Shown one piece after another: positions 18,038-35,225 of a DNA stretch of 64,000 bases. How positions within the stretch are numbered: the stretch's first letter is position 1; each line of letters begins with the position of its first letter. The notes under the pieces are model-generated. The model was given only the letters and a program-made list of their open reading frames with translations. It was not told the origin of the DNA and searched no databases. The DNA comes from Cyanidioschyzon merolae. Its lineage: Eukaryota. Both the position numbers and the translations under genes were made by a program. The DNA lies in NCBI GenBank assembly GCA_000091205.1, contig AP006489.2; one strand, 5' to 3'.

Positions 18038-18539
18038 ATGTACTCCGTGTGCGGCGCCCGAAAAGCACACCGAGCCTTGGGCGCAATGCCTTGCTGCTTA
18101 GCCCTCTTGCTTCTGCTTGTAAGGCTGCTATGAAACTTGGAACTCTGTGTCCAACCCGCAACGAAGACCCGTGCTACTATGCCACGCACCTAGAACCAAG
18201 ACTGTTCCAGTGCAGCCTGGGGGTATCTTCGTGCTACTGAGACGCTACCGACAGTGCGTGCGTTCACTTCGCGGCCTCTGCTGGACGCTAGTGCCAGACA
18301 GTCGAGGCTGACTGCGACTCAAGTGCAGTTATGCAGTTCGCTTATCGGGCTCTATGCTCTACACGAGACGCAGCGTCTACAGCACGTTGCAGTCGCGACA
18401 CGCACGCGTGCTTGAAAAGCACCGGTGGCTTCTTCTCTGGTCGCCCTTGTCACGCGCGCTTGCGGAAGCTTGATTTAAGGACACATCGCGCACAGCATAC
18501 AAGAGCACGCTGTACGTCCTCGCACGAAAACCGGTGTCT

Positions 18540-19874
18540 ATGCGCAAAAGTTACGATACGCAGGTCGCAACGAACGCCCCGAACAATGACGCGTCAGCGC
18601 GAGCGGTTACGCTACCCAGCTTGCTGCTGTTCGGGACGCGAGGAGCGGCAATAATAGCGTCTGCGGTACTGAACTGTGTTGAGCGTTTACGACAGGCTCG
18701 GGAGGACGTATCGTCCCAACGTTGTTGTTTCCAGTACGCGGGAAGCGAGCATAGCTTCTGTCGTACTGAACTGCGTCGAGCTTTTCAAAGCAGGCTCGCG
18801 GGGACGACCGCTCAGCCCGAGTTGGCTCCGGTCGGGAGCTCGCCTCCACTTCCGAACGGTGGTCTGTTTCGAGCGGAGAGGCTCGTTTTGGGCGGTGTCG
18901 AACCGGACACCTCACCAGGAGGCCCTGCGGTGCAGCACCACCTGATGCAGCAGTCCCAGCAGCACGCGGACGACTCTTGTACAACCGCAGCGCAGCCGAG
19001 CTTGGACTGGAGTGAGCTTGAGGTGTTCGAAAAAATAGCCTCGGGCACAGACACGGACATCTTCCGAGCTTCTCTCCACGGCGATGCGGTCGCTGTGAAG
19101 GTACTCTCCAAGTACGCTTCTACCGACGCTGAAGACGCTTTTAATCGCGAGTGGAGGACCTTCGTGGAGCACGACCTCAGGCACCAGAACATCATCCGCT
19201 TCTACGGCTGGGGCTATCGACCAAACGGGGAGCGCTTTCTTGTCGTAGAGCACGCCAAAGGCGGTAGCTTGCGGCAAGCACTGACTCGGCGACTCTGGAA
19301 GGACATCGGACGAGTGGTTCGCCTCGCCCGCGACATTACCGCTGCACTCGAGTACCTACACAGCCGAAACATTATCTACAGAGACCTCAAGTCCAGCAAC
19401 GTACTCCTGGATGCGTCCTGGAATCGAGCGCTGCTGTGTGATTTCGGAATCGCCAGAGCGATGATAGGCGATGGTGCAGGCCAAATGACCCGCGAATGCG
19501 GTACCTATCAGTACATGTCACCTGAGGTGATTCTCGGGAAAGCAGACTACGGCGAGAAAGCAGATATCTACAGTTTTGGCATCCTTTTGAATGAGATGTG
19601 CACGGGGGAGATTCCCTTCAGTCGTCAGCGACTCCTTCCTGTGCAGGCTGCGGCAGCGGTGGTGAACAAGGGTCTGCGACCCGGTATGCGCGGCTCCGTA
19701 GAGCGCAAGTATCCAGAGTTGCACGCGCTCATTCGCAAGTGCTGGGCGCAACGGGACGATGCTCGACCCACAGCTGCGGAAGCACGCGCTGAACTGGATG
19801 CCATTCTGGTTAAATATTTTTCTGCGGATCAGACGCCGACCGCAGATGCGCAGCTATCCACGGCCACAACTTGA
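18540..19874 (+). CDS. Serine/threonine (TKL-like) protein kinase with an atypical catalytic loop
   Basis: VAVKVL (VAIK), IIYRDLKSSNVLL (YRD in place of HRD), CDFGIA (DFG), YMSPEV (APE). The glycine-rich loop is degenerate (IASGTDTDIF). ATG at 18540 follows a GTG at 18534. Confidence 0.8.
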   Translation: MRKSYDTQVATNAPNNDASARAVTLPSLLLFGTRGAAIIASAVLNCVERLRQAREDVSSQRCCFQYAGSEHSFCRTELRRAFQSRLAGTTAQPELAPVGSSPPLPNGGLFRAERLVLGGVEPDTSPGGPAVQHHLMQQSQQHADDSCTTAAQPSLDWSELEVFEKIASGTDTDIFRASLHGDAVAVKVLSKYASTDAEDAFNREWRTFVEHDLRHQNIIRFYGWGYRPNGERFLVVEHAKGGSLRQALTRRLWKDIGRVVRLARDITAALEYLHSRNIIYRDLKSSNVLLDASWNRALLCDFGIARAMIGDGAGQMTRECGTYQYMSPEVILGKADYGEKADIYSFGILLNEMCTGEIPFSRQRLLPVQAAAAVVNKGLRPGMRGSVERKYPELHALIRKCWAQRDDARPTAAEARAELDAILVKYFSADQTPTADAQLSTATT

Positions 19875-22984: not shown

Positions 22985-23565
22985 GCGCGGCGCCAGCGCG
23001 GACGCCCACCCCCTGCCAGCGTGGGGCCCATGGAGGTATCGTCTGCTTAGTCTCTAAAGTGGTAATCTATGGTAGTTTTATGCAGAATGACTTGGCAGGC
23101 GCTATGGACCGCGAGGGCGCTGCGCTCGCGTAGCAGATCGTGCAGTTTTATGCGTTGGTAATATAGTGACGCGCATGCGCTTGCGCGGACGCCCACTCCC
23201 TGCCAGCGTGGGGCCCATGGAGGTATCGTCTGCTTAGTCTCTAAAGTGGTAATCTATGGTAGTTTTATGCAGAATGACTTGGCAGGCGCTATGGACCGCG
23301 AGGGCGCTGCGCTCGCGTAGCAGATCGTGCAGTTTTATGCGTTGGTAATATAGTGACGCGCATGCGCTTGCGCGGACGCCCACTCCCTGCCAGCGTGGGG
23401 CCCATGGAGGTATCGTCTGCTTAGTCTCTAAAGTGGTAATCTATGGTAGTTTTATGCAGAATGACTTGGCAGGCGCTATGGACCGCGAGGGCGCTGCGCT
23501 CGCGTAGCATATCGTGCAGTTTTATGCGTTGGAGATATAGTGACGCGCATGCGCTTGCGCGGACG
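22985..23565. repeat. Tandem array of a 179-bp unit, about 3.2 copies, ending inside the 5' end of the PcyA ORF
   Basis: Unit gcgcttgcgcggacgcccactccctgccagcgtggggcccatggaggtatcgtctgcttagtctctaaagtggtaatctatggtagttttatgcagaatgacttggcaggcgctatggaccgcgagggcgctgcgctcgcgtagcagatcgtgcagttttatgcgttggtaatatagtgacgcgcatgc recurs at about 22997, 23176 and 23355. The first copy is slightly diverged. Confidence 0.9.
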
Positions 23566-24526
23566 GCTATTACTTGCCAAAGCTGACCATCCTGCCGCTT
23601 CACTTGAGCTGTGTGTACGCATGGCTTTTCTTGCAAGCAGTTGCGTAACAACTGCGCATCCGCTAACCCGTCGTTCAGCGAAGCAGCGCTGTGCGGCAGG
23701 GGTCCACGTGCGTCGCGCGTTGCTGGCCTCAGGTGCTGCTGGCGAGCGAAGGTTGCGGCGCGTGCAGCACCCACTGATTCAAAGACTCGCTGAGGGCATA
23801 GAGCGCACTTGGCAGACAGAGCTGCATGACCTTGCGCCGTTTCACCTACCAGAGGACCTAGGCTACATCGAAGGGAAACTCGAAGGCGAGAGAGTCGTTA
23901 TCGAGAATGTCTGTCATCAGAGTCCGGCCTTTCGAAAAATGCATCTGGAGCTAGCACGTGTCGGGACCTCCCAGACCGCGTCCTTGGATATTCTGCACTG
24001 TGTTATGTTCCCGTGCGCTGGGCGCGTCGGAACCAATGTACCCATGTTCGGCTGTGATATTGTAGCGGGACGGGGAGCGGTATCCGCAGCGATCGTCGAC
24101 CTGTCGCCAGTCAGCGCCTCGCGAGAACTGCCGCCGAGCTACCGAGACGCACTGCAGTCGCCGGAAATGGCTGCGCTTCGACGTTTTCGCCAGGTACGCG
24201 AGTTGCCGGCTTGGGGTCGCGAGATCTTCTCCGAATTCTGCGTTTTCATACGCCCGGTGCAGACACCCGAATGCAATGAAGAGGATCGCTTCGTGGATTT
24301 AGTATTGCGGATGCTCCGGATTCACTGCCATCTAGCACAGAAGAGCACGAGCACACCACATCTGGACCAGGTAAGAGAGGCCCTGGAGGGCCAGATTCAC
24401 TACTGTCGAAAACAGCAGGAGAATGACAAAACGCGCCGTGTCCTGGAGAGTGCTTTCGGTAAACCCTGGACGGAGCGCTACATTAGCACGGTGTTGTTTG
24501 ATTCGCCGGTGCTGGCAGCGAACTAG
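23549..24526 (+). CDS. pcyA: Phycocyanobilin:ferredoxin oxidoreductase (ferredoxin-dependent bilin reductase, PcyA type) with an N-terminal presequence. Start is ambiguous (23549 or 23621).
   Basis: [50 protein letters not shown]...[23 protein letters not shown]...[24 protein letters not shown]...[34 protein letters not shown] closely follows cyanobacterial PcyA as I recall it. The track start at 23540 is GTG, and ATG 23549 lies inside the last tandem-repeat unit. Confidence 0.85.
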
Positions 24527-32333: not shown

Positions 32334-34691
32334 TCACGCATGCTCCCGTGCAGCGTCTCCAGGCGGTGGCAGCAGCGGCGCTTTGGCGGCACTCGTGGAA
32401 AGCAGCGCGGCAACCACGGTCACGTTGTCTTGAGTCTCTCGCTGTAATGCCTCCGTAACCAGGCGGCGTGCCAACAGACCAGGGACCTGCACAGTGCCTC
32501 GGATGATTTTCGCTACTTCACCGACATCCATGACATCCCAGAGACCGTCGGTGGCAAGGATCAGGATATATTCTCGATCGGGCTGCAAATGCTGGATGTA
32601 GAGCTCAGGTTCCGCAGTCAAATAGCGTTTGAGCGCAATGTCCCCGATCGCACGCGTAACCAGCGTAAGACCCTCAACTCGAAGCGTACCAGCGCTATCT
32701 GCAAGGACCCGTGCGCCTTGTTCTTGAAGACGTGCACGTTCCTGTGAAGACGCTGTACAAGTTTGATCTAAAGTGACGAGGATAGGCACCAAGGCCGTAT
32801 CGGGTTGCACTTCAAAGAGCACCGCCCTGGAGTCCCCGATATTTGCCACATATAACGTGCCGCTGTGCACCATCGCCACAAGTGCCGTGCTGCCAACAAG
32901 TCCTCGCTTCCCGAGGGCCTGTGATGCGTCGTGCTGGGCGCACCACAGCGACCAGCACATATCCACGAAACAGAGAAGCTCGCGCAGCACTTGTTCGGGG
33001 CGCATTTGCGGGTTACGACCCAGCAGCCTCTGGAGAGCATCTGGAATCAGAGCCGCCGTAAAGTCAGCTGCCTCCACACCACCATGGCCATCGAAAACAC
33101 CCAGTATATGGGAACTGCCCCAACAGGCGAGTGCCGGTCCAGACTGGACAAGCTCTATTGACAATTGCAATGGAGATGCTACCAGGTGACGATCTTCCAT
33201 ACGATCTGGTCCACGACGACCCGACACGGCATACGCCTCCGCTTGCACCCGATCTGAGCGATCTACAGAGGCAGGTGAGCTGCTTCGGTCGAGACGTTGG
33301 CGGAAACCAGCAGGCGCGGCGCTTCCCGTATCGCTAAGCGGGAACGGGCGATGCGCAACGCTCTGAACCAGTTCATGCGCTATGGTGGTGATCTCGTGAG
33401 CGTCCTTTCCAAAGTACGAAGCGGCGAGCGCACTCGGATCGGTTTCAGAAACAAGGTCAGCACCGGTAGCCGCAGAGGCCTGACGAGTGCGCTCCGCTGG
33501 ACCTCTTGGGGTCTGCGATGCGTCCACCTCGTCGTCGCCGATGTGCGTTGCCCACGCAGCGCCAGCCAAGGCGCCCTCTGGGTTCTCCGCCAAGGTAGAA
33601 CGCAGTATCCTGACCGCTTTAAACGAGGAACGCTTCAGCTGGTCAACCAATGCAGCTAGTTCCTTCACCACAGCTGACATGGCAGGCCGTCTCGCAGGGT
33701 CCGCATCCCAACACCTTTCAATGAGTTCGCACAGGCGTTGACCCTCGCGACCTCCAAGTGCATCCACATCCAGTCTGGGTCGCAGGTGCTCGGTAACGAT
33801 AGCCGTTCGTAGCTGCAGCTCGTTGAAGCGTGTCTCCAGAACCGTGTGCAGCTCTGGCTCGGAAAGTTGTCGATCCACGTAAGGCACAGAGGCGGTGACT
33901 ATCTCATTCAGCGTGATACCGAACGCGTAGACATCGGATGCATACGTAGATCCCCAGCCTGAACGCTCCGCGCTCAGAAGCTCCGGCGCCATGTACACGG
34001 TCGTACCAACCATATGAGCAAGACGTCCGGCACTGGGTCCAACGGGCAAAGGCGTGCCTTCGGAATGCAGACGATGCTTTCCTTCGTTAGCTTGTCGAAT
34101 AGCATGCGCGCTTGACTCCCGTATGGATTCCGTGTTTGGTAGCGAGTGCGAGTTGCTCATGATGGCGAGTTCAAAGTCCGCGAGCAGGACGCGATCATCT
34201 TCCAAGAGCAAGTTGGCCGTTTTCACATCGCGGTGGATAACACCAAGCTCGTGCAGGTTCTGCAAGCCGATGGCGAGCTGCAACGCCCACTCGAGTCGCT
34301 GGAGAATGCTATGGGTACCGGGCGTTGTCCGTTTATGGAGGACATCGAAAACGCAGCCCCCAGAGCACCAGGGCGTCACCGTGCAGTAAAACGGGGGCGC
34401 TTCGCATACCGCTAACAGCGGCAGCAGACCCGCCGGCATGCTTACCTTCTCATCGCCACGCTGGACGCAAGTTCTCTGACGTGCACGCACTGTAACATAG
34501 TGCTGCAGGTGAACCTGAGAGTGAAAGCGTTCCAACGCTGCGCTGGATGTGATGCGTGGCTGCCTCACCGCGACCGCCAGACCGTCCAACGTACCGCGGT
34601 ACACAGCGGCACCGCTACCTATAGCCGCTGGGTCAGCGAGTGGTCCCAGCTCAGCGCGAGACACCTGACGAAGTTCGCTTACAATGGACAT
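32334..34691 (-). CDS. Bifunctional protein-kinase / PP2C-phosphatase fusion protein (N-terminal kinase domain, C-terminal PPM/PP2C domain)
   Basis: Kinase motifs: VIHRDVKTANLLL, LADFELA (DFG replaced by DFE), YMAPELL. PP2C motifs: GVFDGHGG, LATDGLWDVM, DNVTVV. Single 785-aa ORF with ATG start. Confidence 0.85.
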   Translation of the reverse strand: MSIVSELRQVSRAELGPLADPAAIGSGAAVYRGTLDGLAVAVRQPRITSSAALERFHSQVHLQHYVTVRARQRTCVQRGDEKVSMPAGLLPLLAVCEAPPFYCTVTPWCSGGCVFDVLHKRTTPGTHSILQRLEWALQLAIGLQNLHELGVIHRDVKTANLLLEDDRVLLADFELAIMSNSHSLPNTESIRESSAHAIRQANEGKHRLHSEGTPLPVGPSAGRLAHMVGTTVYMAPELLSAERSGWGSTYASDVYAFGITLNEIVTASVPYVDRQLSEPELHTVLETRFNELQLRTAIVTEHLRPRLDVDALGGREGQRLCELIERCWDADPARRPAMSAVVKELAALVDQLKRSSFKAVRILRSTLAENPEGALAGAAWATHIGDDEVDASQTPRGPAERTRQASAATGADLVSETDPSALAASYFGKDAHEITTIAHELVQSVAHRPFPLSDTGSAAPAGFRQRLDRSSSPASVDRSDRVQAEAYAVSGRRGPDRMEDRHLVASPLQLSIELVQSGPALACWGSSHILGVFDGHGGVEAADFTAALIPDALQRLLGRNPQMRPEQVLRELLCFVDMCWSLWCAQHDASQALGKRGLVGSTALVAMVHSGTLYVANIGDSRAVLFEVQPDTALVPILVTLDQTCTASSQERARLQEQGARVLADSAGTLRVEGLTLVTRAIGDIALKRYLTAEPELYIQHLQPDREYILILATDGLWDVMDVGEVAKIIRGTVQVPGLLARRLVTEALQRETQDNVTVVAALLSTSAAKAPLLPPPGDAAREHA

Positions 34692-35225
34692 TTGAAGCGT
34701 CTAGGTAACGCTAGTCACCTAAACTTCCAGCGATCCTGCCAAGAACGTCGGTAGGCAGGCAGGCTGGCTGGCTGGCTGGCTAGCTGGTAAACCACAACGC
34801 AGCATGCTGCAGTGCAAACGGATTCAAAGGGAACACTGACCTATCTACTCGCTATATCGCTGCGTTTCTATCTTATTCAGACCTTTTTTAGTGTGCAGCC
34901 TTGGCATTCGCACGGAAGCAAGAGGGGTTTACGAAATCCTACCTAGTTTTGCGATTCTCGGTCGTTTTAGCGGAGTTGTGCCTTGGATGCTTTGTCGCTG
35001 GAATTCGTTACGTTAAGGAAATGAAGGTGATTCGCGTCGCCGTCGAGCAAGAGCTCCTTCAATGATCGATATCGGGACTTCATGCATACGTACTAACCTC
35101 TATTTTTCTCCGTTGCTTCAGCGTACAACGTGCAAATCAGGCATGCTTGGAGGTTTCGACCTCTCTATTTAAGGCTTCTCGTGAGTGCAGCTAATAACGT
35201 CACTGGACTCACGCGGAAATAATTC

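Follow-up and report, generated by a model that had tools for sequence, protein, structure and literature searches.

VTC3 of Arabidopsis (At2g40860, TKL-Pl-3) is a 'protein kinase and PP2C-like domain-containing protein', reportedly cloned by Conklin et al. in 2013 as a putative dual kinase::PP2C. Mutants of vtc3 have ~35-50% of wild-type ascorbate without its light-induced rise, and a moss knock-out is similar; the ascorbate role has been shown in Arabidopsis and Physcomitrium only (PMC12675267, PMC11066809). Here we describe a gene within a window of 64,000 nucleotides from the red alga Cyanidioschyzon merolae (assembly GCA_000091205.1, contig AP006489.2), which codes for a kinase-like domain fused to a PP2C domain and, judged by collinear homology, is the red-algal orthologue of plant VTC3. 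This gene and its kinase–PP2C architecture are already annotated, and the family is already published; what we add is a clade-wide pattern, in which all red algae have an Arg in strand β3 and an acidic DFG+2 residue, as against the canonical motifs of the green lineage.

Several kinase-like proteins with altered active sites have been described. By sequence, a predicted pseudokinase in the sense of Manning et al. is one that is missing one or more of three residues, namely the VAIK Lys, the HRD Asp, and the DFG Asp (PMC4718504). KSR2 has Arg692 at the β3 position, binds ATP-Mg, and has weak activity, and TRIB1, which has SLE for DFG, has no observable nucleotide binding (PMC4718504). Mycobacterial maltokinase has exactly D-F-E at the position equivalent to DFG and is an active phosphotransferase (PMC4306142).

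The C. merolae gene encodes a VTC3-type protein

The gene is one uninterrupted open reading frame (ORF) that starts with ATG and codes for 785 amino acids (Table 1), with in-frame stops 4 and 10 codons 5′ of the ATG; its N-terminus is therefore not extendable. The product is identical at 785/785 residues to XP_005535913.1/BAM79627.1 of C. merolae 10D, annotated as "protein phosphatase 2C, with protein kinase domain", and in the one paper that cites the C. merolae accession it appears among four PP2C genes. Other assemblies and metagenomes hold 12 near-identical full-length variants with two to six residue differences, most of which are in the linker and the inserts of the kinase domain. The three departures from a canonical kinase discussed below (R43, Q59, and DFE) are kept in 12/12 of these variants, and thus are not sequencing errors.

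Pfam matches to the kinase part are PF00069 (E 2.4e-24) and PK_Tyr_Ser-Thr, PF07714 (E 5e-23), each divided into two stretches because of an insert in the activation segment, and PF00481 matches residues 497-757 (E 9.5e-39; 134 bits, gathering score 20.3). An earlier sequence-only reading of this DNA had proposed a kinase and a complete PP2C domain of the At2g40860 type in a single polypeptide, expected to match PF00069 and PF00481, with no frameshift or intron separating two genes. All of this holds: the matches fall within one continuous 785-aa ORF, every catalytic and metal-binding PP2C motif is present, and the quoted motifs (HRDVKTAN, DFE, APE, DGHGG, and DGLWD) translate at the expected coordinates.

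For the comparison with plants we used a VTC3-type protein from Drosera (P0099) in BLASTP searches, in place of the Arabidopsis sequence; P0099 shares 66-91% identity with proteins that carry the names VITAMIN C DEFECTIVE 3, 'protein kinase and PP2C-like domain-containing protein', or TKL-Pl-3. The C. merolae and Drosera proteins are collinear, with 35% identity over 338 aa in the kinase part (E 7e-48) and 35% identity over 281 aa in the PP2C part (E 3e-35). Two signature motifs, [GK]P[ST]xG..MVGT..YMAPE and VPYxD..HTVLE..LRP, are common to the red and green families and invariant in the red algae. The order of the domains, N-terminal kinase and C-terminal PP2C, is that of Arabidopsis VTC3, as are the signatures in the activation segment and in the αF-αG region. 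Unlike the land-plant and green-algal proteins, which have VAxK, DFG, and DGHRG, the red-algal proteins have VAxR, D-x-[D/E], and DGHGG, and C. merolae VTC3 also has ~130 residues of inserts and a longer linker than the plant proteins. The VAxK/DFG mismatch is a difference between clades, not a criterion used in the literature for the VTC3 family.

The start of C. merolae VTC3 lies only ~20 residues before the Gly-rich loop, which begins at residue 23; as the ORF is not extendable, there is no space for a long N-terminal transit peptide. Arabidopsis VTC3 is reported to localise to the chloroplast. Most of the red-algal orthologues from outside the cyanidiophytes begin with MGS(T/V), and the Drosera protein begins with MG followed by CIRGCC; such MG-type N-termini look like possible N-myristoylation/palmitoylation signals rather than transit peptides. 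Gly2 is absent from the Cyanidiophyceae proteins, which begin with MSIV, MNEV, MNSV, or MDTA.

Red algae share a β3 Arg and an acidic residue in place of the DFG Gly

The kinase–PP2C architecture is found in ~50 red-algal proteins, including those of Galdieria, Cyanidium, Cyanidiococcus, Porphyridium, Pyropia, and Gracilariopsis; several are named "Protein kinase and PP2C-like domain-containing protein". In a rough neighbour-joining tree without bootstrap support, the window protein nests in the Cyanidiophyceae inside a red-algal clade. Residue counts for red algae are from 46 aligned orthologues, and kinase positions were assigned by alignment with B-Raf and plant VTC3 and from predicted secondary structure.

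The β3 residue, R43 in C. merolae, is Arg in 46/46 orthologues. At the position of the DFG Gly (E174) there is Asp in 42 and Glu in four, the Glu-bearing, DFE-type proteins being those of the Cyanidioschyzon, Cyanidiococcus, and Cyanidium group. The αC position (Q59) is occupied by Glu in 43 and by Gln in the remaining three, namely C. merolae and two close relatives. In the Gly-rich loop, position 23 is Ala in 35 and Gly in six, position 25 is Gly in 43, and position 28 is Ala in 44. Residues H153, R154, D155, K157, N160, D172, P236, and E237 are invariant (46/46), and the activation segment has a long run of invariant residues (G218, P219, S220, G222, R223, L224, M227, V228, G229, T230, Y233, P236, and E237). 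The C. merolae domain therefore combines canonical protein-kinase features (the HRD Asp D155, K157, N160, the DFG Asp D172, and A235-P236-E237) with departures at the β3 Lys (R43), the αC Glu (Q59), the GxGxxG loop, and the DFG Gly (E174). We looked for a WNK-type compensating Lys, but no Lys is invariant in the N-lobe of the red-algal orthologues.

By its sequence the C. merolae kinase-like domain falls under the formal definition of a predicted pseudokinase, because Arg replaces the VAIK Lys. Because all 46 red-algal orthologues carry D-x-[D/E], DFE is best seen as an old feature kept by selection, and the β3 Arg together with the acidic residue at the DFG Gly position is, judged from this conservation, an ancient and selected clade-level variant, not a lesion or a recent inactivating change. 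The sequence-only reading had treated DFE as a one-off substitution, which it is not, and had described the Mg-binding DFG as replaced; DFE is indeed present, but the Mg-binding Asp (D172) is kept and invariant, and only the Gly is lost. Likewise, where it had named the catalytic Lys and Asp as residues to check for conservation, the Asp residues (D155 and D172) are kept but the β3 Lys is Arg. The deviations that it overlooked are the more diagnostic ones: β3 Lys to Arg, αC Glu to Gln, and a Gly-rich loop reduced to A-x-G-x-G-A.

We also searched 1.84 billion representative proteins with a profile and aligned the matches to it. The green-lineage proteins among them (including those of an angiosperm, Mesostigma, Chlorokybus, and a pedinophyte) have VAxK, the αC Glu, HRD, DFG or DYG, and DGHRG in the PP2C domain. 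Angiosperm counts are from the 120 orthologues listed, which do not include the Arabidopsis sequence. Among these the β3 residue is Lys in 113 and Arg in seven, all of them from Hibiscus; at αC, 99 have Glu and 21 have Gln; 118 have a canonical DFG, and the two exceptions look like gene-model errors; and the equivalents of the catalytic-loop H, R, D, K, and N are invariant. The seven Hibiscus proteins (P0304, P0305, P0308, P0309, P0317, P0326, and P0332) have VAARKP at β3 and a canonical DFG, and on alignment the Lys to Arg replacement is an independent change within angiosperms. Angiosperms with the αC Gln include Drosera, Nepenthes, Acer, Chenopodium, Coffea, and Trifolium.

We also noted related proteins from other lineages. 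Those of Ancoracysta twista (P0098), the diplonemid Lacrimia lanifica (P0145), and Gymnodinium smaydae (P0175), two MMETSP transcripts (P0112 and P0123), and two metagenomic sequences (P0129 and P0144) keep the β3 Lys, and often have DFD, DFE, or DLE for DFG and VRD, LRD, or HGD for HRD; most of the named ones are transcriptome-derived, and contamination from prey or symbionts is possible. A metagenomic subclade of the green DGHRG type (P0124, P0125, and P0184) has DFQ for DFG, and QED for MED in the first PP2C motif.

The Arabidopsis vtc3-1 allele is G202E (PMC12675267). Residue 202 is the Gly of MVGT in ~100/120 of the listed angiosperm orthologues, and the DFG Gly is residue 169; we therefore rejected, on this mapping by numbering, the idea that vtc3-1 corresponds to the replacement of DFG by DFE. 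The mapping places vtc3-1 at the invariant MVGT Gly, which is G229 in C. merolae VTC3, and suggests that an intact kinase-like domain is important in vivo. A search of the open-access literature found no paper containing both "VTC3" and "pseudokinase".

The PP2C domain is predicted to be an active phosphatase

All of the PP2C catalytic and metal-binding residues are present, and R493, E499, D500, D534, G535, H536, D620, D715, D719, D755, and N756 are invariant in the red-algal orthologues; we take the metal- and phosphate-binding roles of the motif residues to be those of their PPM1A counterparts. The closest sequences with solved structures are HAB1, OsPP2C50, and PPM1K. An AlphaFold2 model of the whole protein has a mean predicted local distance difference test (pLDDT) score of 78.6 and a predicted template-modelling (pTM) score of 0.54. 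Foldseek aligned the model with PPM1K at a template-modelling (TM) score of 0.87-0.89 and a root-mean-square deviation of 2.4 Å, and with the whole model as query only PP2C structures are among the 50 matches listed. Because every catalytic and metal-binding residue is present in a PPM fold, we expect the domain to be active, and predict a Mn/Mg-dependent Ser/Thr phosphatase. The stand-alone PP2C/PPM phosphatases HAB1, OsPP2C50, and PPM1K share this fold and the catalytic residues (26-29% identity, TM up to 0.89), but lack a fused kinase domain, and the window protein is without the abscisic acid-receptor context of the clade-A plant PP2Cs.

For the kinase-like domain, the best matches among sequences with solved structures are B-Raf and MAP3K12, and pLDDT is mostly 85-97 outside the inserts. 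The ~40-residue insert in the activation segment is specific to Cyanidiophyceae in the alignment of red-algal orthologues. Between the two domains, the low-complexity S/A/P-rich linker noted in the sequence-only reading is confirmed, with S, A, P, T, and G making up 51% of residues 355-480, and AlphaFold2 predicts disorder at residues 370-416 and 451-477. Within this otherwise disordered linker, residues 419-447 (33351-33437) are confidently modelled as a helix (pLDDT ~81-96), with an L..YF motif that is common to the Cyanidiophyceae orthologues; the helix may be a docking element for either domain.

Possible roles of the kinase-like domain

Our preferred explanation, held tentatively and at slightly less than an even chance, is that C. 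merolae VTC3 is an intact PP2C tethered to a non-canonical kinase-like module that would retain ATP-Mg binding, with phosphotransfer that is weak or specialised, or with a regulatory or docking role. VTC3 is a signalling protein conserved in red and green Archaeplastida; on this reading its kinase-like domain would either transfer phosphate weakly or in a specialised way, or serve the tethered PP2C as a regulatory or docking module that depends on nucleotide. It would be comparable to KSR, with its β3 Arg, rather than to a conventional high-turnover kinase or a decayed relic. We infer that nucleotide binding is kept because the residues contacting metal and phosphate are invariant, as is the adenine pocket (L162 strictly, V30 and A41 nearly so). 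By analogy, KSR2 is the closest counterpart to the C. merolae domain: KSR1 and KSR2 are RAF-family TKL pseudokinases that share the TKL-type fold, the β3 Lys to Arg change, and the retained catalytic-loop Asp and Asn and DFG Asp. KSR differs, however, in keeping DFG and in lacking a fused phosphatase, and the likeness is one of analogous active-site change only, with no orthology.

Distinctly less probable, yet a serious competitor, is a fully competent atypical Ser/Thr kinase, which would make the protein a true dual kinase/phosphatase. Arg43 would then take the phosphate-contacting role of the β3 Lys, and the acidic residue at the DFG Gly position would help to organise the metal site, as it does in DFE-bearing eukaryotic-like kinases. 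The invariance of HRD, K157, N160, D172, and APE across the red algae fits such an enzyme, as does the strict conservation of the Arg and the acidic residue, which are not drifting. Precedents exist for both changes, in that KSR2 with its β3 Arg phosphorylates MEK1 as well as binding ATP-Mg (PMC4718504), and in maltokinase the Asp of 322-DFE-324 binds Mg and the Glu contacts Mg2-bound water (PMC4306142). Because maltokinase is active with this motif, DFE is not disabling in itself; the suggestion of the sequence-only reading that DFE could alter or abolish phosphotransfer thus needs qualifying, since DFE alone is not abolishing in the kinase-like superfamily. However, maltokinase is a small-molecule kinase and not a eukaryotic protein kinase, an ELK/APH-like sugar kinase of unrelated origin with an HGD catalytic loop and no PP2C domain. 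The β3 Lys, moreover, is described as the most conserved residue in protein-kinase-like proteins (PMC4718504), and in C. merolae its αC Glu partner is also gone and the Gly-rich loop is degenerate. That the domain is instead a dead pseudokinase that binds no nucleotide, with a Tribbles-like scaffold or substrate-docking surface for the PP2C, seems to us improbable. The VAIK Lys is absent, as in the formal pseudokinase definition, a Glu at the DFG Gly position is also found in the SLE motif of TRIB1/2 (PMC4718504), and conservation of the C-lobe surface motif VPYVDR..ELHTVLETRFNE..LRP is extreme, as would be expected of an interaction face. Tribbles, though, lacks the DFG Asp as well and has a degraded, acidic Gly-rich loop, whereas in C. 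merolae the DFG Asp, the HRD Asp, the catalytic-loop Lys and Asn, V30, A41, and L162 are all conserved, a set not easily accounted for unless the domain binds nucleotide or metal.

An artefact, with the fusion or DFE arising because an assembly or annotation error joined two adjacent genes or because the gene is a decaying pseudogene, is vanishingly improbable. We found no point in its support, and it is refuted by the continuous ORF with stops just upstream, by the same architecture and length in >50 red-algal and >120 plant proteins, by the 12 independent near-identical variants that keep the motifs, and by the intact PP2C catalytic residues.

Several considerations weigh against the reading that we prefer, that of a PP2C tethered to a nucleotide-binding module with weak or specialised phosphotransfer or with a regulatory or docking role. 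Statements about VTC3 activity are all inferred from sequence (PMC10069634), and that the catalytic Asp, Lys, and Asn and the DFG Asp have stayed strictly invariant through a very deep divergence is equally compatible with full catalysis. The β3 and αC positions may simply be tolerant, as Hibiscus combines the β3 Arg with a normal DFG and 21/120 of the listed angiosperms have the αC Gln; and maltokinase is an example of an active kinase-like enzyme with DFE (PMC4306142). A pTM of 0.54 also makes the inter-domain geometry of the AlphaFold2 model unreliable.

We further entertain, as a possible if doubtful proposal, that red-algal VTC3 is a distinct mechanistic variant in which an Arg/acidic pair (R43 with D/E 174) replaces the canonical Lys-Glu(αC) pair and the DFG Gly, and the kinase domain serves the PP2C as a switch that is gated by nucleotide and largely non-catalytic. 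If so, the conserved core function of VTC3 would be phosphatase targeting or regulation, not dual catalysis, and the red algae, with Hibiscus and its β3 Arg, would form a natural 'kinase-impaired' series for dissecting VTC3 biochemistry. A whole ancient lineage has kept the protein with other residues at the β3 Lys and DFG Gly positions but with an unvarying PP2C site and catalytic loop, which suggests that the phosphatase is the indispensable catalytic part. The red-algal pattern also predicts mutations that plant VTC3 should tolerate, namely K to R at β3 and D or E for the DFG Gly, and C. merolae, genetically tractable and nearly intron-free, is convenient for testing VTC3.

Features of the gene and its neighbourhood

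The features of the gene are collected in Table 1.

Table 1. Features of the C. merolae VTC3 gene, with positions in the 64,000-nucleotide window
Feature	Coordinates	Strand	Basis
Complete coding sequence, 785 aa + stop; C. merolae VTC3 orthologue (by homology), kinase-like::PP2C fusion	32334..34691	-	ORF list; identity to XP_005535913.1/BAM79627.1; upstream stops
TKL-type protein-kinase-like domain, ~residues 15-350	33642..34649	-	PF00069, PF07714, structure matches, AlphaFold2
Degenerate Gly-rich loop PAAIGSGAAVYR, A23-x-G25-x-x-A28 for GxGxxG	34596..34631	-	B-Raf alignment
R43 at β3 'VAIK' Lys position	34563..34565	-	Aligned with B-Raf VAVK and plant VTC3 VAVKK; predicted strand 38-45
Q59 at αC Glu position	34515..34517	-	Aligned with B-Raf E501
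~24-residue insert between αC and β4, Cyanidiophyceae-specific	34431..34502	-	Alignment columns 126-143; pLDDT 62-68
Catalytic loop HRDVKTAN, intact (H153, R154, D155, K157, N160)	34212..34235	-	Translation
D172-F173-E174, DFG equivalent; Mg-binding Asp kept, Gly to Glu	34170..34178	-	Translation
~40-residue activation-segment insert, low confidence/disordered	34041..34160	-	Alignment; pLDDT <50 over 183-226
Activation-segment end with family signature, GPSAGRLAHMVGTTVYMAPE, APE (235-237) at its end	33981..34040	-	Alignment, translation
Inter-domain linker, residues 351-479, A/S-rich, mostly disordered	33255..33641	-	Composition, AlphaFold2
PP2C (PPM) domain, residues 480-766	32394..33254	-	Pfam PF00481, Foldseek, motif conservation
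PP2C motif RGPDRMED	33192-33215	-	
PP2C motif DGHGG	33078-33092	-	
PP2C motif GDSR	32826-32837	-	
PP2C motif DGLWD	32535-32549	-	
PP2C motif DN	32424-32429	-	

The window has 55% GC and its genes are intron-free, in keeping with C. merolae nuclear DNA, and its bilin reductase gene helps to confirm this source. A trypanosomatid origin, at first suggested by GC content and the lack of introns, was rejected on the homologue search. The neighbours of the VTC3 gene are unrelated housekeeping genes, coding for alanyl-tRNA synthetase (AlaRS), a bilin reductase, a FEN1-like nuclease, Utp21, an FPL protein, transporters, and others, and this neighbourhood offers no hint of VTC3 function; no tRNA genes were found in the window. 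Upstream of the VTC3 start codon, at a distance of 63-96 nt, there is a tetranucleotide microsatellite (34754-34787), with 8.5 copies of a unit that reads GGCT on the plus strand and GCCA/GCCT on the gene strand (90% matches). About 12 kb from the VTC3 gene there is a second, unrelated protein-kinase ORF of 446 aa (18534-19874, + strand), which has a Pkinase match (E 4e-47) in a single unbroken stretch. The bilin reductase ORF (23540-24526, + strand) codes for a ferredoxin-dependent enzyme (PF05996, E 2e-66), as expected for red-algal phycobilin synthesis.

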